From positions 300,001 to 332,000 of the forward strand of contig NZ_CP043314.1 of NCBI RefSeq assembly GCF_008189525.1: 32,000 nt of DNA. Direction: 5' to 3'. Made by a program: the position numbers and the translations under genes. The notes under the pieces are model-generated. The model searched no databases. It saw nothing but the letters and a program-made list of their open reading frames with translations, and had not been told where the DNA came from. Every line of letters starts with the position of its first letter. Position 1 is the first letter of the stretch. Of this stretch, positions 2,542 through 27,607 are shown piece after piece. The stretch is from Candidatus Saccharimonadota bacterium (lineage in GTDB: Bacteria > Pseudomonadota > Alphaproteobacteria > CAJXXZ01 > 1604HC).

Positions 2542-3831
2542 TTGATAAAAATAGTATTTAGAAAATTTTCACTTTTAAAACATTTGTTTATCAGCTCTAT
2601 ATCTATCTTTTTACAAATAAAATATGCGTACTCTAAAAATTTAGGGTATTTATTTGCAATACATTTTTGGTATTTTATTTGTTTTGAGAATGTATCGAAT
2701 TTTAAATTGAAATCTGATTTTTTTGTAGAAATATCTAAAACAGCTGTTTTTGGTGTTGTTGCATTTTTTGCTTCTAAATATTTTAATGTTTCAGTTTATT
2801 TTGCATCTTATTCAGTAATGTATTTTTATGTAAGCTATTTAGGATATAAAAGAAATAGCAAACTTATACCTGATGTAATAATTATAAGTGAAAAAATCAT
2901 GCATAAATGGCCTGTATTTGCAAAATATAAAATCATAGGAGAGTTAATATTAGATTCTGATAACATAGAAAATATAAAAAATACTATAAAGAAAGCTAAG
3001 CCAAGTATAATATTATGGAATTGTAGGGCTGGAAATTATTTTGCAGATTTCCTTGGTTGGTCAATAAAAAATAATATATATATAAATTATCTTAGAAAAG
3101 ATAAGCCAATACCCCCAAGTATAGAGCATTGTATGGAAGATTTCTTAGTAACCAACAAAATAGATATTACAAATAAAGAAAAAACAACAAAGAAAGTTGT
3201 GATATTTTCTCATGACATAGGTCTTCTTACAGCCCTATACAGAGAGTTTAAGAAAAACAATTTAGAATGTTTTGTTTTTTTAGATGCTAAAAGTTCTATA
3301 GCTTTTAAAATAAAGCTTTACAGGCAGTTTGGGAAACAGGTTTTAAATAAATCCATGATCAGAAAAGTAGGTGATTTTTTATTTATAGATTGCTCAGGTA
3401 TAATTTCTTTCAAAGAAGAATGTAGAGATATAAAGTTACTTGAAAAAATAAAAGAAAGAATTTGTTTGGTTTCAAGAAATAAAGGAGATTTTTTCTTTTT
3501 AAGTACAAAGACATATAACTCTGAAGACTTAATCTTCAATCAATTAACATTAGCTTCAGAGAATATAGTGAAGTTTTATAATGGTAAGGTTATAAAAACT
3601 CCATATTTAGCAAATTATTCAAGGAAATTATGTAATTATGAAAAGAACAGTTATATAAATATGGACTCTGGTTGGATAACAAAGAAGTTTTTAATAAGCA
3701 GCATTTCTAATATAGTATTACATAATCATATAAAATTAATCGAATCAGAGCATTTTTTGACAAAAAAAGACATGAAATCTATCTGTAATAACTTAAAAAA
3801 AGCTTGGTTTATGTGGTCAAAACCTTTATGA
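2542..3831 (+). CDS. hypothetical membrane protein (N-terminal hydrophobic segments, unassigned cytoplasmic part)
   Basis: 429-codon ORF in AT-rich DNA. TTG start at 2542 is preceded by AGGA (2531-2534) at 7 nt spacing. Hydrophobic N-terminal ~100 aa. No motif I can name with confidence. The next gene starts 18 nt downstream. Confidence 0.6.
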   Translation: MIKIVFRKFSLLKHLFISSISIFLQIKYAYSKNLGYLFAIHFWYFICFENVSNFKLKSDFFVEISKTAVFGVVAFFASKYFNVSVYFASYSVMYFYVSYLGYKRNSKLIPDVIIISEKIMHKWPVFAKYKIIGELILDSDNIENIKNTIKKAKPSIILWNCRAGNYFADFLGWSIKNNIYINYLRKDKPIPPSIEHCMEDFLVTNKIDITNKEKTTKKVVIFSHDIGLLTALYREFKKNNLECFVFLDAKSSIAFKIKLYRQFGKQVLNKSMIRKVGDFLFIDCSGIISFKEECRDIKLLEKIKERICLVSRNKGDFFFLSTKTYNSEDLIFNQLTLASENIVKFYNGKVIKTPYLANYSRKLCNYEKNSYINMDSGWITKKFLISSISNIVLHNHIKLIESEHFLTKKDMKSICNNLKKAWFMWSKPL

Positions 3832-4785: not shown

Positions 4786-6971
4786 TTCCTGAGCATATTA
4801 GTGGAAATAAAACCTCTAAAACAAAGCGTTTTATTTATGGAAATCTGAAGACATTCAAAAAAATGATAAACAAACTAAATATATTTAAATCACCAGCTAT
4901 TTTTTTTAAAAAATTAAATCTATTTTTTTTGATTTTAAGCAGTGTATCAATATCTTTACATGCAAATAAATCAATTATAGGGAAGATAGACCTTATACAA
5001 AAACAAAGTAGCGTTATTGAAAATGAAATTGAAAAAATAAACAAAGAAATAAGTGAAATAAAAACTAATGTATTAAAAGGAAATAACTATTCTGAATACC
5101 ATGGAAGTGGACTGTTAAATGTTGGTAGTTTTTCAGGGATTTGGAAGTTTTTAGAAAAGATATATCAAAACTGGGTAGATATATTCCTAAATATAAAAAA
5201 ATCATTAGAATTTATGATTCAGCATAAAAAAACTAGAGAAGTTTTTTATAAATCAATACAAAGCATATTTTATATAGTTCTATATAATTGTATGATTTTC
5301 GGATTCCTAAAAACAATTGTTTTTTTCATAAAGAAAAGATTAGACAGTGCGTATTTAAAAAGTATAGTAAGTATTATTCCTAAGGTGTTTTTATATTTGT
5401 CATTACTTTTTTCTATTCATATTTGGTGTGGAAACTTGCCACAAGAAACTTATTGGATGTCAAACTTAATCAAAAAAATAGTTTTCTACTTACTTGTGTT
5501 TGATCTTTTTAAGTTTAGTTTTTACGATTTGAATATATTAAATAATTACAAAATATGTAAAAAAAGCCTGGTTGTTTTCTCTAAGAATATTTTGAGTATT
5601 TTGTTGATTTATTTTATATTTGGAAGTTTGACAGAGTTTATAAAAATACCATTAATCCAAAATAAAGATTTTTTCGAAAAGGATATAATTGACAACATAA
5701 GTTTTATATTTAATATCTTCTTTACTATAATAATGATAAATTTTGTTCTTTCATTTAGAACTATAATCTCAGAACTTATATTAAGGCTTAATAAGAAAAA
5801 CGTAATAAGGCAGCTTACTGGTCCTGTGGCTTTAAATCTTTTGATATTACTTATTATTTTGTTCCTATGGGTAGAATGGCACGACACTTCAAACAAGCTT
5901 ACAAGAATGATTGCATCTTTTATGATTTGGCCAATAATTTACTTCTCATCTCTCTATGTAAGAGTCTCTATCTCTAAGAAAATAAGATCAATAAATTACA
6001 ACCAAAGGAAATATATAATATCCTTTTATTTTGTTTTTGAAAAACTTACTAAATTTTTATTTTTTCCTGTTTCAATTTTAGCAACACTGAAAATATGGAA
6101 CATACCATTTGAAGGTTTTCTGTACAGAGTAATAAATCCAAATTTTTTGCACCTTTTATATAAGATGTTTTTATTGTGGTTTTTTTCATATTTTCTATTC
6201 AAGTTTTCAAAATATGTTTTGCATTATTGGATTTTTCATAAGTCCAAAAAAGATGATTGCAAAAGGTTAAAAGTAATTTTCAAAATAACTAGCTCGATAA
6301 CCTCAGGAGTTATATGGTTAGGAGCTTTTTTGTTTGGACTTTCTTTGCTCGGACTGGAGATATCTCCAATAATCCCTGCTTTAGGTTTTTTGACAGCTGG
6401 TCTTACAGTTAGTGTTTCTAGCATAATTAAAGACTTTTTAAATGGAATATTGATTCTTTTGGATAACACAATAACAGTTGGAGATATAATTCTAATTAAT
6501 GGTTCTAATGCGATCATAGAAGATGTTCATTTGAGATATATGAGAGCTAGGTTAGATAATGGGACTTTAATTACAATACCTTTTCACAAAGTAGAGGAAG
6601 TATTTAATAAGAGTAGAGAGTTTATTGGTATAGTTTTAAATGTTGCAGTGACATACGAAACAGATATAAAAGAAGCTACAGCTGCTATAGAAGAAGCATT
6701 TTTTAGAGTAAGGACTTCTGCAGAATTCGAGCATAAAATAATCTTACCTATAGAAAAAAGAGGTGTTTCTGAAGTTACAGGTCTATACATGACGTTGATG
6801 TTTAAATGTAAGGCAAAAATAGGTTCTCAGTTCAAGATACATAGAGCCATGAATGAAATGATAAAAATAGTTTTTGATGAAAGAGGAATTAAGATTCCAT
6901 CTTACGTTAGTTTGGATCAAATAAGCAAAGCTGCATCTACGAATACATCACCACCAGCATTATTTCATTGA
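4782..6971 (+). CDS. mechanosensitive ion channel, MscS family (large MscK/KefA-like form)
   Basis: C-terminal MscS core: GFLTAGLTVSVSSIIKDFLNGILILLDNTITVGDIILINGSNAIIEDVHLRYMRARLDNGTLITIPF. Many upstream TM segments and an N-terminal coiled-coil-like stretch. ATGA overlap with the preceding gene. An alternative start at ATG 4863 would give a cleaner signal peptide (MINKLNIF...LILSSVSISLHA). Confidence 0.9.
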   Translation: MIPEHISGNKTSKTKRFIYGNLKTFKKMINKLNIFKSPAIFFKKLNLFFLILSSVSISLHANKSIIGKIDLIQKQSSVIENEIEKINKEISEIKTNVLKGNNYSEYHGSGLLNVGSFSGIWKFLEKIYQNWVDIFLNIKKSLEFMIQHKKTREVFYKSIQSIFYIVLYNCMIFGFLKTIVFFIKKRLDSAYLKSIVSIIPKVFLYLSLLFSIHIWCGNLPQETYWMSNLIKKIVFYLLVFDLFKFSFYDLNILNNYKICKKSLVVFSKNILSILLIYFIFGSLTEFIKIPLIQNKDFFEKDIIDNISFIFNIFFTIIMINFVLSFRTIISELILRLNKKNVIRQLTGPVALNLLILLIILFLWVEWHDTSNKLTRMIASFMIWPIIYFSSLYVRVSISKKIRSINYNQRKYIISFYFVFEKLTKFLFFPVSILATLKIWNIPFEGFLYRVINPNFLHLLYKMFLLWFFSYFLFKFSKYVLHYWIFHKSKKDDCKRLKVIFKITSSITSGVIWLGAFLFGLSLLGLEISPIIPALGFLTAGLTVSVSSIIKDFLNGILILLDNTITVGDIILINGSNAIIEDVHLRYMRARLDNGTLITIPFHKVEEVFNKSREFIGIVLNVAVTYETDIKEATAAIEEAFFRVRTSAEFEHKIILPIEKRGVSEVTGLYMTLMFKCKAKIGSQFKIHRAMNEMIKIVFDERGIKIPSYVSLDQISKAASTNTSPPALFH

Positions 6972-7176: not shown

Positions 7177-8532
7177 ATGAATATAAAACAAACACTGACA
7201 TATTTAATTCTGTCAGGAAGCATGCTTGTGGGGGCAATGAATCCAATCTATGAAGACTCACTAAATAAAGGTAGACAATCTGTTTCACAACCTGAGTATG
7301 AATATCCAGGTTCTGATCAACAGCCATCTCTCACACGCAATTTAAATCCACGTAATCATACTAATAAATCAAGAACCTCTGAAGCAGAAAGTGATAGGGT
7401 TTTAGAGAGATTTGCAAAAATGCAAGTTACAGAACTTAATTCTGATCAGATGTACAAAAACGCTCAAGTAGCAAATGATTTGTTTTTCCTAAGAAGTACA
7501 AAAAACCCAGCTGCTAGAATAATTGTAGATGCAGCTAAAAAAGATATGGATGAACAAAAAATTCCTCAAGTAGATTTAACTGGTTTTTCACATAGAACTA
7601 GAATACTTATGATCAGGGAATTGCACTTATATTCCCTTAACAAATATATTTGTTTATGTAAGATGTTTAATATTGATCCATATAATAATAATGCTAATTG
7701 GGGACTAAAGTTTCTCATTATGAATCAAGATCAATCCAAGTGTGTAGTGAGTTTATTGCTATTACCTTCAGTAAATCAAGCAGGAAATGCTAAGGTGTTA
7801 GAAGAAGGAAAGTACAGTGATGTTTTTGAAAAATTAAAAGCATTACAAGAAAATAAAAAATTAAAAAAAATTATTGATGGGTTTTATAATGCAAGAAAAA
7901 CCCCTGAACATCACCAAAGATTTAAGCAAGATTATGGAAATTATACAGGAGAAAGATATGCTCTGGACTTCTTGTTAGATTTTGAAGTTTCTCGTAGATT
8001 GCTTACCAGTAGTATTGGAGTTAATGGATTAATAACTTATGAAGATAAAGTTGGATATGATTCTAATCCTATTGGCGTGTGTATAAGTGAAATACTTAAA
8101 TTTGAACCTGATGATTTCTGGCAAGTTTTTATGCAAACAACAAATAAAAACATAATCAAAGCAGTTAATTCTCCACAAAAAGATACATATAAAACTAGTC
8201 AAAATTCTGGGGGCAATGACAATGTATATTTATCTGAAACAAATATATTCTCAGGATATAAAAATAAATTAAGATCCAACGCAGCTAAGAAAGTACTAGA
8301 AAAAGGGTTGCAGAGTAAGTTGGAATCTGCAACAGAAATTCCTGCTGGGTCACCAGAATATTACCATCAGCAGCTTTTGGAAGCTTTTGGTGGAGCTAGT
8401 GAAAGCGAAAGTGATGAATCAGATTCAAATGGAGATCGTGTAATTTTTTCTAGGAATTACAATGAATTAGATTATGATGCAGCTATGCATATGCATCAAC
8501 CAAAGAAATACAGAAAAACTACTAAAAGCTAA
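7177..8532 (+). CDS. hypothetical protein with signal-peptide-like N-terminus (orphan, candidate secreted protein)
   Basis: 451-codon ORF. N-terminus MNIKQTLTYLILSGSMLVGAMNP. Acidic Ser/Asp/Glu patch near the C-terminus (ASESESDESDSNGD). No recognisable catalytic motif and no SD. Flanked by 205 nt and 474 nt of non-coding DNA. Confidence 0.7.
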   Translation: MNIKQTLTYLILSGSMLVGAMNPIYEDSLNKGRQSVSQPEYEYPGSDQQPSLTRNLNPRNHTNKSRTSEAESDRVLERFAKMQVTELNSDQMYKNAQVANDLFFLRSTKNPAARIIVDAAKKDMDEQKIPQVDLTGFSHRTRILMIRELHLYSLNKYICLCKMFNIDPYNNNANWGLKFLIMNQDQSKCVVSLLLLPSVNQAGNAKVLEEGKYSDVFEKLKALQENKKLKKIIDGFYNARKTPEHHQRFKQDYGNYTGERYALDFLLDFEVSRRLLTSSIGVNGLITYEDKVGYDSNPIGVCISEILKFEPDDFWQVFMQTTNKNIIKAVNSPQKDTYKTSQNSGGNDNVYLSETNIFSGYKNKLRSNAAKKVLEKGLQSKLESATEIPAGSPEYYHQQLLEAFGGASESESDESDSNGDRVIFSRNYNELDYDAAMHMHQPKKYRKTTKS

Positions 8533-12787: not shown

Positions 12788-13108
12788 CTAAGTTTCTATA
12801 TTTATATTACAAACAGCAACTGGATTTACTTTTAATCTCCTTATATCTATCGGATCTCCCGTTCTCATACATATGCCAAATTTGTTGGTTTCTATTCTGC
12901 TCAAAGCCATGTTTACTTGTTTTAGCATTTCCATTGCTTTGGTTTTTTCTATCACTCTTGTGTTAGATGATTTTTCGTTTAAAGCTGCATCATAAGAATC
13001 AGCAGATTTTTCAAACTCTAGTTCGTCTGTGATAATTGAGCTAAGCTCTTCTTTCATTCCTAAAAGAACTTTTCTAAAATATCTTATTTCTGAATTTTTT
13101 AAAAACAT
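12788..13108 (-). CDS. dksA: DksA/TraR-family RNA polymerase-binding regulator, short form with degenerate zinc finger
   Basis: Coiled-coil tip motif DSYDAA (DxxDxA). C-terminal FGICMRTGDPIDIRRLKVNPVAVCNI corresponds to the DksA CxxC-N17-CxxC region but reads CxxT-N16-CxxN. Confidence 0.8.
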   Translation of the reverse strand: MFLKNSEIRYFRKVLLGMKEELSSIITDELEFEKSADSYDAALNEKSSNTRVIEKTKAMEMLKQVNMALSRIETNKFGICMRTGDPIDIRRLKVNPVAVCNINIET

Positions 13109-13559: not shown

Positions 13560-13976
13560 TTAGCTAGCTTTAATCTTTGTTTGTCTAATGTCTATGATGC
13601 AAGAAATCATTTTTTGTATGTCATTTTCTGGATCTTTTACTATAGAGTGAATCATAATTATTTTTTTCGAATTACCATTTTTGCTTTCAAAATTAATCGT
13701 ATCAAATGCTATTGTGCCAGGAGTTAGTGTTACCCAAGTAGACAATAGCTCTGCATCGAAATCAGAAAGCATCGAAATATCAAGGTTTATGACACTTTCA
13801 TAAAACTCTCCTAAAAATCCATTCTTTATAAATAAGTACAAGGATTTTACTATGAAATAGAAAAACAAGAAAAAGAATCTCGAAAAACAAAAAGTTTTAC
13901 ATAAAATTGCATTTTTACAAAAAATTTCATTAATTTTAAGATAGACAAAATTGCCAATTTTCCTTAACATGCTCAT
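13560..13976 (-). CDS. Mrp/Mnh-type cation:proton antiporter subunit E-like protein
   Basis: SDFDAELLSTWVTLTPGTIAFD...KKIIMIHSIVKDPENDIQKMI matches, as I recall it, the MrpE signature (TDWELSLLASLISLTPGTLSMD...YIYIHAIDVPNKEKMI in B. subtilis MrpE). The N-terminal half is shorter than canonical MrpE. Confidence 0.55.
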   Translation of the reverse strand: MSMLRKIGNFVYLKINEIFCKNAILCKTFCFSRFFFLFFYFIVKSLYLFIKNGFLGEFYESVINLDISMLSDFDAELLSTWVTLTPGTIAFDTINFESKNGNSKKIIMIHSIVKDPENDIQKMISCIIDIRQTKIKAS

Positions 13977-14711
13977 GTGAATAGTAATTTATATCAAATT
14001 CAAAATATTTTCAAAAGGTATGGAAAGAAAGACATATTGAAAGATGTTTCTTTTTCAATTCCAGAAAAATCAATAGTTGGTTTAGTTGGTTTAAATGGAT
14101 CAGGAAAAACAACATTATCTTCAATAGTGTCTGGATTAAAGCCATGTACATCTGGAGATGTTCTTCTTAATGGAAAAACAGCTTATAAAAACATAGATGA
14201 ATACAAAAGGACTATAGGACTTTGTCCTCAAAGAACTAATCTGGATAACAGGTTTACTGTAAGAGAGAACTTAATAAATGATGCAGTTTTTTTTGGCATT
14301 AGCGATGAAAGAATAAATATTAATTTAAAAAAAGTTATTAAGAAATTCAATTTAGAAAAGTATTTAGACTTTAAGCCAGCAGCTTTATCTGGCGGTTACA
14401 AACAAAGAGTTTCTATAGCAAGAGCGCTAATGCACGAAGCTTCTTTAATAATATTAGATGAACCAACTTTAGGGTTAGATCCAAATACCAGAAAAAGTCT
14501 TTGGGATGTTGTAAAAAACCTAAAAGAAGAGGGCTGTTCTGTGCTAATTACGACACATTATATGGACGAAATAGAAGGCTTAATTGACAAGCTTTGCATT
14601 CTAAGTAAGGGAAAAATATTTTTTGATGGAACTGTGGATGAACTTAAGAAAAATAAAAACAGTGATTTAGACAAAATATTTAATAAACTTGCAGAAGAGG
14701 AGTGTGAATAA
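13977..14711 (+). CDS. ABC transporter ATP-binding protein (ABC-2 type exporter partner)
   Basis: Walker A GLNGSGKTT, Q-loop, signature LSGGYKQRVSIARAL, Walker B LIILDEPT, H-loop TTHYM. GTG is the only possible start because a TAA lies at 13965-13967 in frame. Confidence 0.93.
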   Translation: MNSNLYQIQNIFKRYGKKDILKDVSFSIPEKSIVGLVGLNGSGKTTLSSIVSGLKPCTSGDVLLNGKTAYKNIDEYKRTIGLCPQRTNLDNRFTVRENLINDAVFFGISDERININLKKVIKKFNLEKYLDFKPAALSGGYKQRVSIARALMHEASLIILDEPTLGLDPNTRKSLWDVVKNLKEEGCSVLITTHYMDEIEGLIDKLCILSKGKIFFDGTVDELKKNKNSDLDKIFNKLAEEECE

Positions 14712-20601: not shown

Positions 20602-21336
20602 ATGATTTATGACATATATTCAGATATATTTGGATTGATAAATAAAAATAAATTGATATTTATTTACTCAGAGGAAGATTCCTTATCTGCAAGTTTTTTT
20701 GATGAATTTATTGGTCAGAATGTAGAATTTGACCAGTTTTCAGAAAACATAATGCTAAGCTTAGGTTTAATACAAAACCCACCTGTAAAAATCAAAACTA
20801 CTTTAGCAAATGCAAAAAAAATTCTTAAGCTAAATGTAGGAAATTGGAAAAGGGAATGTATAGTTTGTGTAGATAAAAAAATAGAAATAAAGAAAAGTGA
20901 AAAAAATTATTCTGACATAGCAGTTGTTGATTGTAAAATCATGAATAAAACTAAATTCATTAATTTCTACTCTTCTCTATTTGGATATAAGTTTGATGAT
21001 GTAAAAGATGTTCTTTGGGTAGAAAACTTATATGATCTACATTACGCAAATAAAATTAACCTTATAGACAAAAGCTTGCTAAAAACTCTTAACACAGAAG
21101 AGAAAAAAACGTTCTCTAGTCTGAACTCAAAAGATTTAGAGTCAAGAATGAGGTTGTGGCAAAATGTAGATAGTCCTTGGTCTTGGATTAGATTTTTACA
21201 ATATCACTATAGAATGAGAGGTAAAAGCGCTCTATATGCAGATGCATTACATCTAGAAACCTGGGCCAGAGAGACAACTCCTAATGATGAAGTTTTTATA
21301 TGGATGTGCAGACAACTAATGGAGAGAGAAGAGTAA
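20602..21336 (+). CDS. hypothetical protein
   Basis: 244-codon ORF. The N-terminus LIFIYSEEDSLSASFFDEF is only vaguely reminiscent of DNA polymerase III delta N-termini, which is not enough for an assignment. Confidence 0.6.
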   Translation: MIYDIYSDIFGLINKNKLIFIYSEEDSLSASFFDEFIGQNVEFDQFSENIMLSLGLIQNPPVKIKTTLANAKKILKLNVGNWKRECIVCVDKKIEIKKSEKNYSDIAVVDCKIMNKTKFINFYSSLFGYKFDDVKDVLWVENLYDLHYANKINLIDKSLLKTLNTEEKKTFSSLNSKDLESRMRLWQNVDSPWSWIRFLQYHYRMRGKSALYADALHLETWARETTPNDEVFIWMCRQLMEREE

Positions 21337-24252: not shown

Positions 24253-25479
24253 ATGAACGCAGAGAATAAAGAATATACAAATAAAGAAAGTATATTTCAG
24301 TTAATCAAAGAAGAAGAAAAAAGACAAAAAGAAACTTTATCTTTAATAGCTTCAGAAAACATAACATCCAAAGACGTTATGATTGCCCAAGGATCTTGCT
24401 TAACAAATAAATATGCTGAAGGTTATTCAGGAAAAAGATACTATGGCGGATGCACTGTAGTCGATAAAATAGAAGAAAGAGCGATTGAAAATGCTTGTGC
24501 ATTATTTGGAGCCAAGCATGCAAATGTACAACCACATTCTGGATCTCAGGCAAATATGGGAGTTTTCTTTGGACTTTTAAACCCTGGAGATACTATTTTA
24601 GGGATGTCCTTACAATCTGGAGGGCATTTAACTCATGGATTTAAAGTAAACTTCTCTGGACAATTCTATAATTCAATTTCATATGGCGTGAATAACGATG
24701 GGATCATAGATATGAATGAAGTAAGAGATCTTGCAATAAAACATAAACCAAAAATGATTATAGCCGGAATATCATCATACAGCAGAATTTTAGATTGGAA
24801 GAAATTTAGATCTATATGTGATGAAGTAGGCGCTATTTTGCTTTGTGATATAGCTCATGTATCTGGATTAATTGCAGCAAAAGAATACCCTAATCCAATA
24901 CATGAAGCAGATGTAGTAACATCTACAACACATAAAACATTAAGAGGACCAAGAGGAGGTCTAATTCTTACAAACAACTCAGATATATTTAATAAGATTA
25001 ATAAAGGAACTTTCCCTGCAGTACAAGGAGGGCCTATGATGCACTCTATAGCAGCAAAAGCAATTTGTTTTGAAAGCGCAAATCAAGAAAATTTTAAAAA
25101 CTATATAAAAGATGTAATTAAAAATGCACAACTTATGGCTGATGAATTATCAACAGATTTTGAAATAATTTCTGGAGGAACAGATACACATATGTTTGTA
25201 GTCAAATTAAATGATTGCTCTGGAAAAGAGGCTCAAAAATGGTTAGAAGAATCTGGAATTATAGTTAATAAAAACACAGTGCCTAATGATAAAAAATCTC
25301 CTGCAGAAACATCTGGAATAAGAATAGGAACTCCATCTTGCTCTTCCAGAAAAGTAGATAAATCTACAATTATAGAAATATCAAGATATATTAAAGAAAT
25401 TATAAACTCAAAAGGAAAGAATAATTTCAAATCTGAAATAGAAAAAATATGCTACAAATTTCCTATCCTTGAGTTTTAA
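24253..25479 (+). CDS. glyA: serine hydroxymethyltransferase
   Basis: LIASENITS, YAEGYSGKRYYGG, PLP-lysine motif VVTSTTHKTLRGPRGG. Confidence 0.97.
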   Translation: MNAENKEYTNKESIFQLIKEEEKRQKETLSLIASENITSKDVMIAQGSCLTNKYAEGYSGKRYYGGCTVVDKIEERAIENACALFGAKHANVQPHSGSQANMGVFFGLLNPGDTILGMSLQSGGHLTHGFKVNFSGQFYNSISYGVNNDGIIDMNEVRDLAIKHKPKMIIAGISSYSRILDWKKFRSICDEVGAILLCDIAHVSGLIAAKEYPNPIHEADVVTSTTHKTLRGPRGGLILTNNSDIFNKINKGTFPAVQGGPMMHSIAAKAICFESANQENFKNYIKDVIKNAQLMADELSTDFEIISGGTDTHMFVVKLNDCSGKEAQKWLEESGIIVNKNTVPNDKKSPAETSGIRIGTPSCSSRKVDKSTIIEISRYIKEIINSKGKNNFKSEIEKICYKFPILEF

Positions 25480-25551
25480 ATCATACTAGCAATTAGAAGG
25501 TAAAATACATAAAGAGCTGGAAAATATTCTAAAGAATTATAAAATAGAATT

Positions 25552-27330
25552 ATGAAAAATAAACTTATTCTGTTTGCATTATTAACTAACCATATAACTT
25601 CTAGTTATGAATTAGAACTATCTAATCTACATAAAAATGTTCAAACATCAGTTCTTGGCCATACATTTCTCTCAACTAAAAAAAGTATAAATGCATATCT
25701 TTCCAAAACAGTGGAAGAAGTAAAAGAACTAACATTTGAAGATCTACAAACCAAAATATCAACTTGGATTAAAAACATGCTTTCTGATATAAAAGAAACT
25801 GATGCAAAAAAATTGGAATTAGAAGTCACAACAGATACAGTATTAAAAATCAAAGAAAATCCAAAAAACTCTAGAGAAATTCTTGAAAATAAAATTCTAA
25901 TAATGACTGCTTTATATGAATCTCAAGTAATTCTTGAAAACCATTCACTTGAAGATTTGAGATATGAAGGCATAAGCGATAAACCTTCACGTGAATTACT
26001 AAATAAGAAATTCAAGAATGAAATAGCATATCTGGTGGAATTTTTTTATAGAGTCAATGAAAAAGTAAAGTTAGAAAATGAATTTACATGTGTATCTAAG
26101 CATATTAGAGCTTTTAGTATAAATGATAAATGTGATGTAAACACAATGAAGCTAAAAATAAGATTTATAACAGATCATATAGGAAAAAAAGTTCCATTTA
26201 TTTATGATGCAAATTGCAAGTTAGGTGTAAAAGAAATTTTCTTAGGGAGCTTTATTGGAACACCTGAACTTTGGATCTACAATGGCAATGTAATTCAAGA
26301 ACCAGCAATACATATATGTGAACTAAGAAAATACACTGGTATACATTTCGTATATGGAGAAAGCGAAGGATTAGATAGCGCTACTTTTGTTTCTCAGCTT
26401 TTATATAATGATTCAGAGAAAAAAGAATTCTCAGATTTAATGAAAAAATTAGTAGAAAAATATAAAGACAAAATAATTTTCTCTGGTGAAATAAAAAGAT
26501 ATGGATTTCCTGACAAAGATACACTGTTCACAAAAATTACAAAAGAAATGGTATTTGATACAATGAAACTTGCAACTTTTCAAGAAGATTCTGCTCAAAA
26601 AATAATTTTGGGGTTAATTAATTATCTACAAACTATAGATAATTATCATGAACATGAATCAATTCTAACAGAACATAAAATTCAGAAGAAAAGTAAAAAA
26701 AACACATGTTCAAAGAAAAAAAATAAGAAAAAAATCTTGTCAAGTAAACATGAAATTAAAAAAACATTAGAATCTGAACAAGAAGAAAAAATAGTTGAAG
26801 AAGTAGATATAGATAATGTTGAAACAATTGAAGAATCTGAAAATGCAATCATAGACAATCAGGATGTAAGGGCAGTTAGTGATACAGAAGCCACAAGAGA
26901 TGAAGATCAATTTACAAGAGAGATTAAGTCTGATTCAGAAAGTGCTACCGAAGAAGAGTTGGCAATAGAAACAAATGAAGGAGATGAAGTTGCTTCTGAT
27001 AATAGAAGAGCAATTCATTTGAGCAAAGAAGAGAAAATCAATCTAATAAGTAATGCATTGCTTAGTAAAGTAGAAGGAAAATCTATTTTCAAAAAAGATC
27101 ACATGCTAAGCATAATTTCAGACTGGTTAAAACACACAAATCTATATGACAAAGTAAATAAAGTTAATATAAAAGGATCTCATGTAAGTTTTCATATAAA
27201 TAATATGTATGTTAAGTTTGCATTACCACATGGATCCAGTTCAGACGGAGCAAGCAAAAATGTAATGGGTAAAATTGCCAAACAAATATCTAGAATAAAG
27301 CAAGAATCAGAGAAAAGTAGTAATAATTAA
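25552..27330 (+). CDS. orphan signal-peptide protein with Lys-rich tract, acidic tract and C-terminal HicA-like domain (paralogue A)
   Basis: 592-codon ORF. N-terminus MKNKLILFALLTNHITSS. Central domain shared with 29029..30351. KKSKKNTCSKKKNKKK (about nt 26677-26763). E/D-rich region (about 26767-27000). C-terminal SDWLKHTNLYDKVNKVNIKGSHVSFHINNMYVKFALPHGSSSDGASKNVMGKIAKQI (about 27091-27297). Confidence 0.8.
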   Translation: MKNKLILFALLTNHITSSYELELSNLHKNVQTSVLGHTFLSTKKSINAYLSKTVEEVKELTFEDLQTKISTWIKNMLSDIKETDAKKLELEVTTDTVLKIKENPKNSREILENKILIMTALYESQVILENHSLEDLRYEGISDKPSRELLNKKFKNEIAYLVEFFYRVNEKVKLENEFTCVSKHIRAFSINDKCDVNTMKLKIRFITDHIGKKVPFIYDANCKLGVKEIFLGSFIGTPELWIYNGNVIQEPAIHICELRKYTGIHFVYGESEGLDSATFVSQLLYNDSEKKEFSDLMKKLVEKYKDKIIFSGEIKRYGFPDKDTLFTKITKEMVFDTMKLATFQEDSAQKIILGLINYLQTIDNYHEHESILTEHKIQKKSKKNTCSKKKNKKKILSSKHEIKKTLESEQEEKIVEEVDIDNVETIEESENAIIDNQDVRAVSDTEATRDEDQFTREIKSDSESATEEELAIETNEGDEVASDNRRAIHLSKEEKINLISNALLSKVEGKSIFKKDHMLSIISDWLKHTNLYDKVNKVNIKGSHVSFHINNMYVKFALPHGSSSDGASKNVMGKIAKQISRIKQESEKSSNN

Positions 27331-27607
27331 TCTAAAAAATCATATCTTACAGCTTTTCACACAATTCAAGCAGGCATGAAATAATTAAAAATATCAAAAC
27401 AATAAAATAGAATTTATCAGATTATTTAATAACCAGCTGATTAAGAAGAAAAAACCTAAACACTAACAACTTGCTCTTTTAATCTATTATTTTAAGCATT
27501 TATTATGTTGTAATAAAAAATTAAACAATATTATCAAAGCAAACAACTTTATTTTTATGAATAGAAATTAATAGAAAAGCACTAATTATAAGTTAATTAG
27601 TTTTTTA

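Follow-up and report, generated by a model that had tools for sequence, protein, structure and literature searches.

We analysed a 32,000-nucleotide stretch of the genome of Candidatus Nesciobacter abundans (positions 300,001 to 332,000 of contig NZ_CP043314.1; hereafter the window) and describe a gene in it whose 592-amino-acid product ends in a small, basic, strongly constrained domain with a borderline likeness to HicA, the toxin of type II hicAB toxin-antitoxin (TA) systems. N. abundans belongs to the Holosporaceae, has a 616-kb genome, and is an endosymbiont of the diplonemid Diplonema japonicum. The gene is intact and corresponds to open reading frame (ORF) 25552..27330 on the plus strand in the ORF list of the window; NCBI labels its product a hypothetical protein (QEK39104.1 / WP_148972227.1). 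It lies between glyA (24253-25479) and the convergent accD (27608-28444, minus strand), and a paralog lies on the far side of accD.

The paralog is frameshifted. Its 5' fragment (28745..28981, plus strand) encodes 78 amino acids (QEK39106.1), ends in ...ENPKGSKSY before the stop, and by hydropathy begins with a canonical signal peptide, MNKK-LILLSLFFHIL-STNA/AS, the slash marking a T-N-A/A cleavage motif. The remainder continues in the -1 frame (28963..30351, plus strand), and 29029..30351 is annotated there as a 440-amino-acid ORF (QEK39107.1; P0001 in our searches). Joined across the shift, the composite ENPKGS/KELLKNKHLI is identical at 11 of 16 positions to ENPKNSREILENKILI (ENPKNS-REILENKILI) of the intact copy, which places a 1-nt deletion in the paralog at about 28969-28972 (tcAAAGag). 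It coincides with an 'A AAG' motif; slippage of tRNA-Lys by -1 at this point would bring translation back into the frame shared with the intact copy. The 78- and 440-amino-acid products are identical in both published assemblies, OY490516.1 (assembly GCA_960610765.1, 616,058 bp) encoding the exact sequence of the paralog. No stop codon interrupts the 440-codon ORF, which still encodes a complete C-terminal domain (30094..30303, plus strand). Judged by the canonical signal peptide of the 5' fragment, the product of the ancestral gene was probably exported.

Comparison of the two copies singles out the C-terminal ~65 amino acids as by far the most conserved part of the protein. The sole DNA-level repeat between the copies (27026-27288 vs 30029-30291; 263 nt, 76% identity) spans this domain, and in its core (amino acids 522-579) nonsynonymous (dN) and synonymous (dS) divergence are 0.10 and 0.54, with an omega of 0.19; the middle region and rest of the protein have dN 0.62, dS ~1.2 and omega ~0.5. 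Because the domain carries 13 synonymous differences, its conservation reflects purifying selection and not solely recent gene conversion, while its lower dS leaves room for some past homogenisation. We conclude that the last ~65 amino acids form a separate basic domain under strong constraint. The same comparison bears on the idea that the locus is simply decaying, both copies being remnants of a duplicated gene under loss in a shrinking genome, with a tail that has no current function. One copy is indeed frameshifted, homologs are absent elsewhere (see below), and most of the protein is fast-evolving at the dN and omega just given; but a 592-codon ORF has been kept intact at 28% G+C, where stops arise easily, 440 codons have stayed open in the frameshifted copy, and the selection on the domain has acted after the duplication. 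Decay is improbable in our judgement.

The intact protein has a modular layout. Heuristic hydropathy marks amino acids 1-22 (25552..25617, plus strand; MKNK / LILFALL / TNHITSS, no lipobox Cys) as signal-peptide-like: the h-region LILFALL, at seven residues, is the longest apolar run among the N-termini of the window (KD9 2.23), and the N-terminus is among the most hydrophobic there, similar to that of a SurA-like protein. Amino acids 23-372 are fast-evolving, with ~33% identity to the paralog; within them the middle region (151-372; 26002..26667, plus strand) belongs to no known family and is predicted at very low confidence as beta followed by alpha structure. A Lys-rich basic stretch follows (373-405; 26668..26766, plus strand), also present in the paralog, and then an acidic low-complexity linker that is predicted to be disordered (406-490; 26767..27021, plus strand); their net charges are +12 and -23, measured on the intact copy. 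This order, a Lys-rich patch and then a long acidic stretch directly upstream of the basic domain, recurs in both paralogs (26668-27021; 29700-30020), and could reflect AT-rich composition drift or a functional charge-paired linker. The conserved basic domain itself occupies amino acids 514-583 (27091..27300, plus strand; net +8, isoelectric point (pI) 10.1), with predicted elements alpha1 (515-528), beta1 (535-541), beta2 (544-549), beta3 (552-557) and alpha2 (567-589). Pfam domains were absent from amino acids 1-513, including any HicB-like domain upstream of the C-terminal domain. We dropped a DUF7752 match (E 0.1-0.18) found for one paralog only and a match to phrog_21492 (E ~0.1), a family of unknown function with no link to HicA; we rejected as weak a match to Lamassu LmuB (E 0.4) and a keratin coiled-coil match on amino acids 16-113 (E 0.16).

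The protein family is confined to this genome or its lineage. Our protein searches covered ~15 billion proteins overall. An exhaustive phmmer search of 1.84 billion cluster representatives returned a single relative, the in-window P0001 (E 1.3e-52); there were no homologs in a word-indexed set of 5.8 billion proteins, in scans of GTDB genomes, metagenome contigs and viral contigs, or in plasmids (tblastn, E<=10), and no match to the 592-amino-acid protein in Pfam, NCBIfam, PADLOC or PDB sequences. With the paralog as the one homolog found, no deeper alignment was possible. In clustering at 90% identity the protein is filed under an unrelated 46-amino-acid Joint Genome Institute (JGI) peptide (VVDARCIWGIHDHYH...); three short JGI peptides that co-cluster with it at this level are unrelated sequences, and we set them aside as a clustering artefact, which may be the reason that the query did not retrieve itself in the protein searches.

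The original prediction, an alignment by eye of the tail to E. coli HicA, proposed a HicA-like module at the end of a large signal-peptide protein. Its raw material was accurate: the quoted peptide occurs verbatim at amino acids 517-583 (the interval given, 27091-27297, being amino acids 514-582), the E. coli HicA sequence used for the alignment is identical to PDB 6hpb_A, and the landmarks it saw, a W-L helix, K-G-S-H (541-544), L-P-H (558-560) and I-A-K-Q-I, are all present. A basic tail on a large protein with a signal-peptide-like N-terminus is likewise supported, by hydropathy and by the constraint on the domain.

We compared the domain with the solved HicA structures from Burkholderia pseudomallei (4C26/6G26), E. 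coli (6HPB), Yersinia pestis (HicA3, 4P78) and Thermus thermophilus (TTHA1913, 1WHZ), using five solved HicAs together with B. pseudomallei-type sequences as references. All alignments fall in one register, [IV]-x-G-S-H-x-x-F ... [LV]-P-H with a 15-residue spacing. In every profile alignment G542-S543-H544 (27175..27183, plus strand), invariant in both paralogs, aligns with G22-S23-H24 of B. pseudomallei HicA, the His of this motif being catalytic in HicA and lying at the start of beta2 (PMC7180214); P559-H560 at the end of beta3 (27226..27231, plus strand), also kept in the paralog, aligns with P39-H40. The H-to-P spacing of 15 and the Phe at +3 after the His are the same as in the B. pseudomallei protein. 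AlphaFold2, run on the full length as a single sequence and on amino acids 481-592 with a two-sequence alignment, gave a helix-strand-strand-strand-helix topology both times, with a mean predicted local distance difference test score (pLDDT) of 58, and 65-71 over the alpha1-to-beta3 core; in this low-confidence model the turn between beta1 and beta2 holds G-S, and beta2 opens with His544. The domain shares with type II HicA (PF07927) a length of ~55-65 amino acids, a predicted alpha-beta-beta-beta-alpha order, G-S-H at the beta1/beta2 turn with P-H 15 residues on and an aromatic at +3, an amphipathic C-terminal helix with I-x-K-Q, and a basic composition with a pI of ~10. As a comparison of composition only, net charge and pI are +8 and 10.1 for the domain, +9 and 10.6 for its paralog, and +6 to +8 and 10.4-10.5 for three solved HicAs.

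Statistical comparisons place this likeness at the edge of detection. With hhalign, the two-paralog profile matched the five solved HicAs at P 0.014 and a B. pseudomallei-type alignment at P 0.0015 (probability 17%), and of 300 column shuffles, 0-4 scored as high as the real profile. A B. pseudomallei-type hidden Markov model (HMM; hmmsearch --max) gave the isolated domains 9.6 and 12.0 bits (shuffle p 4e-4 and 3e-5), and broader HicA HMMs gave 5-6 bits (shuffle p 0.004-0.012). An E. coli-type HicA profile (A2) did not match the domain, but it misses the other solved HicAs too, and was not kept among the references. The signature GSH-x(12-16)-[VILMT]-P-[HYF], which was defined post hoc, occurs in 120 of 240 reference HicAs and, among 594,555 six-frame background residues, in these two paralogs alone. 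Foldseek ranked B. pseudomallei HicA (6g26_E) first among 350,542 PDB chains, with 6g26_F, 4c26 and several double-stranded RNA-binding domains (dsRBDs) also in the list; the first-ranked match has E 0.17 and template modelling (TM) scores of 0.25/0.37. HicA is the best PDB fold match, at values short of accepted thresholds. The canonical dsRBDs compared were those of Xlrbpa (1DI2), Loquacious, TRBP and RNase III; several appear in the Foldseek list, below HicA (E 0.3-1.3, TM <=0.45), and the domain has no Pfam dsrm match and no detected dsRBD sequence motif. Whether the HicA resemblance exceeds chance is borderline.

Several observations weigh against homology to HicA. The profile similarity that the original prediction implied did not materialise: HicA was not reported by Pfam (PF07927), NCBIfam, PHROGs or PADLOC at E<=10 or E<=1, and hhalign probabilities of 3-17% are far under values usually trusted. 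The profile phrog_353 detects all five solved HicAs, including that of E. coli (E 1e-8 to 1e-24), and fails to detect this domain. When the full-length proteins compete with 595k residues of six-frame background, one HMM places them second and ninth, and neither reaches the top 14 with the two broader HMMs; in the reverse search four background segments score above the best HicA. The query profile is itself nearly powerless, since it holds two sequences only, ~85% identical in the domain core. The Foldseek values rest on a model with a pLDDT of 58, and amino-acid identity enters the Foldseek score, so that the motif itself contributes to it. Two of the three glycines that are invariant in the five solved HicAs, at the end of alpha1 and in the C-terminal A-G-L, are missing. 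An apparent third copy of the domain in an MscS-like ORF (4866-5036, pairwise E 7e-4) proved spurious: it is a hydrophobic N-terminal segment that lacks both GSH and PH, and the match does not recur with the paralog. That such a match arises within the window at E 7e-4 means that sequence of this composition yields such values easily.

These points together could equally describe an unrelated, lineage-specific alpha/beta domain whose G-S-H...P-H likeness is coincidental. In an orphan protein that is secreted or sits in the envelope, it would then mediate protein-protein contacts, anchoring to the envelope or binding to host structures, perhaps the contact with the host mitochondrion that has been described for these symbionts. 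Such a domain would explain HicA statistics that are all sub-threshold and noise-like, a spurious match of equal strength inside the window, a low-confidence model with a TM-score <0.4, the loss of two invariant glycines and the lack of homologs beyond this genome, and it would be at home in symbionts with 22-50% hypothetical genes (10.1101/719211). It explains less readily why the weak signals agree on one family and one register, why the signature turns up nowhere else in 595k residues of background, and why size, charge and predicted topology all suit HicA. We regard this coincidence as a serious possibility, somewhat short of an even chance. HicA homology of the tail is under every accepted threshold, an outcome that the original prediction itself counted as refuting; we hold it to be plausible all the same, at odds likewise somewhat short of even, and the prediction as a whole to be partly supported.

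Beyond the missing profile match and glycines, the candidate domain differs from HicA in a 4-5 residue insertion between alpha1 and beta1, in a much longer alpha2, in its fusion to a 510-amino-acid N-terminal region with a signal-peptide-like start, and in the absence of HicB. The original prediction regarded HicA as normally stand-alone and the fusion as unusual; this is at odds with published C-terminal HicAs in secreted polymorphic toxins (PMC9424270) and in SMC proteins (10.1101/2023.12.08.570793). In the former, HicA is the C-terminal module of S8-PTS BetaH toxins and of one RHS toxin, and here as there a HicA-type module would end a large protein destined for export, which for the 592-amino-acid protein is a prediction. 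In contrast, the polymorphic-toxin HicAs are ~50% identical to TA HicAs and readily recognised, which the candidate domain is not; those toxins carry BetaH, S8 peptidase or RHS trafficking domains and are followed by an immunity gene, none of which we detected for the 592-amino-acid protein; and their C-terminus is the variable part, whereas here it is the conserved part (PMC9424270). The catalogue of Gerdes (10.1101/2023.12.08.570793) lists fused HicAs in classes 11-14, including SMC-HicA and HicB fusions. Like these, the present gene is monocistronic and would place a HicA dsRBD-type domain at the C-terminus of a larger protein; the catalogued fusions, however, have HicB or SMC/NERD partners and occur in defence islands of free-living prokaryotes, whereas here the partner region is an orphan and the organism an obligate endosymbiont.

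Neither copy is followed by a candidate antidote. The 277-nt and 266-nt spacers downstream of the intact copy and the paralog hold no ORF of at least 30 amino acids and hence no HicB or immunity gene, and without a HicB partner the locus is not a TA module; on this point the original prediction holds, there being no room for HicB downstream. A protein that leaves by the Sec route and stays unfolded in the cytoplasm could do without such a partner. Two features of the N-termini sit uneasily with an exported toxin: the h-region of the intact protein, as read by heuristic hydropathy, has just seven residues, and the 440-amino-acid ORF of the paralog, which has no signal peptide, would put its domain in the cytoplasm, awkwardly for an active toxin with no antidote. 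Either this ORF is unexpressed or its domain is non-toxic alone.

The same features invite a cytoplasmic reading, in which the N-terminus is not a signal peptide and the protein is a single-chain, self-neutralised HicA-type toxin, like fused HicAB or HicBA, whose upstream region or acidic linker masks the RNase domain until a trigger. Monocistronic fused HicA architectures do exist (Gerdes, 10.1101/2023.12.08.570793), an 85-residue stretch of net charge -23 directly precedes a domain of net +8, the h-region is very short, and the paralog ORF has the domain but no signal peptide. We nevertheless consider this very unlikely: upstream of the domain there is no HicB-like (partial RNase H) or other known domain, a canonical signal peptide, T-N-A motif included, opens the 5' fragment of the paralog, and phage defence is of doubtful value to an obligate intracellular symbiont with a 616-kb genome.

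The G+C content of the window is ~28%. Housekeeping genes around the locus include infB, argS, glmM-like, lon, cysS, hisS, prfA-like and gyrA. Four other ORFs of 106-451 amino acids have no Pfam match (2542-3831, 7177-8532, 12788-13108 on the minus strand, and 20602-21336), consistent with the high share of hypothetical genes reported for the symbiont, and the product of ORF 7177-8532 has a signal-peptide-like N-terminus, MNIKQTLTYLILSGSMLVGAMNP. A 138-amino-acid ORF (13560-13976, minus strand) has a sub-threshold match to MNHE and abuts the divergent ATP-binding cassette (ABC) transporter ATPase gene (13977-14711, plus strand) with 0 intergenic bases; it may not be a real gene. The 32 kb of the window (1-32000) contain no tRNA gene and no Rfam family at gathering threshold; intrinsic-terminator-like sites numbered 0 in 25300-30800, vs 1.6 expected from shuffles, and promoter and terminator scans were not better than shuffles. 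Downstream of the window, OY490516.1 carries a large-terminase gene (Terminase_6N/6C; L039 16782-18209) adjoining ssb, which is probably part of a set of gene-transfer-agent genes, as reported for protist endosymbionts (PMC9254644). A glyA-based peptide-pattern scan of GTDB for syntenic relatives, seeded on exact 8-mers, reached 46-54% full-length identity at best, in Spirochaetes, Clostridia and other unrelated phyla, and returned no Holosporaceae; these low identities are explained by fast evolution together with exact 8-mer seeding.

The Diplonema symbionts have been described as energy parasites with genomes of 605-632 kb (George et al., 10.1101/719211), and N. abundans has 44 predicted signal-peptide proteins, many secreted hypothetical proteins among its products, and keeps a reduced Sec system, a reduced type II secretion system/type IV pilus and a modified type VI secretion system (10.1101/719211). 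For Cytomitobacter, five species have been reported, not all of them published (PMC13598402). In this setting we suggest that the gene may encode a lineage-specific modular protein of an obligate endosymbiont: a short Sec-type signal peptide would be followed by ~350 fast-evolving amino acids of unknown fold, a Lys-rich patch, a long acidic disordered linker, and the constrained basic domain of ~65 amino acids, which would most likely belong, in highly diverged form, to the HicA/dsRBD-like alpha-beta-beta-beta-alpha class. Such a domain would bind RNA via its basic face, and, if His544 were catalytic as in HicA, would cleave it independently of translation. Given a predicted export signal and the lack of both HicB and an immunity gene, the place of action of the module would lie beyond the bacterial cytoplasm; possible sites are the periplasm, the cell surface, the host cytosol, or a co-resident symbiont as target. 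The most specific version of this scheme has an exported, HicB-less, single-chain HicA-type RNase, silenced in cis by the 85-residue acidic linker and delivered to the host cytosol, the mitochondrial interface or co-resident Cytomitobacter, a TA RNase repurposed as a host- or competitor-directed effector; we consider it unlikely as a whole.

Should the likeness be a coincidence, the gene joins the many lineage-specific hypotheticals, and the small constrained orphan domain is the one lasting observation. If the likeness is real and the tail works as a HicA-type module, a protist endosymbiont with a highly reduced genome would have recruited a TA RNase domain, with no antitoxin, to be the constant working part of one of its exported proteins. 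HicA is known from few settings other than TA operons, and this would be another; it would also offer a testable candidate effector for the Nesciobacter-Cytomitobacter-Diplonema symbiosis, where none of the effectors has been given a function by experiment.

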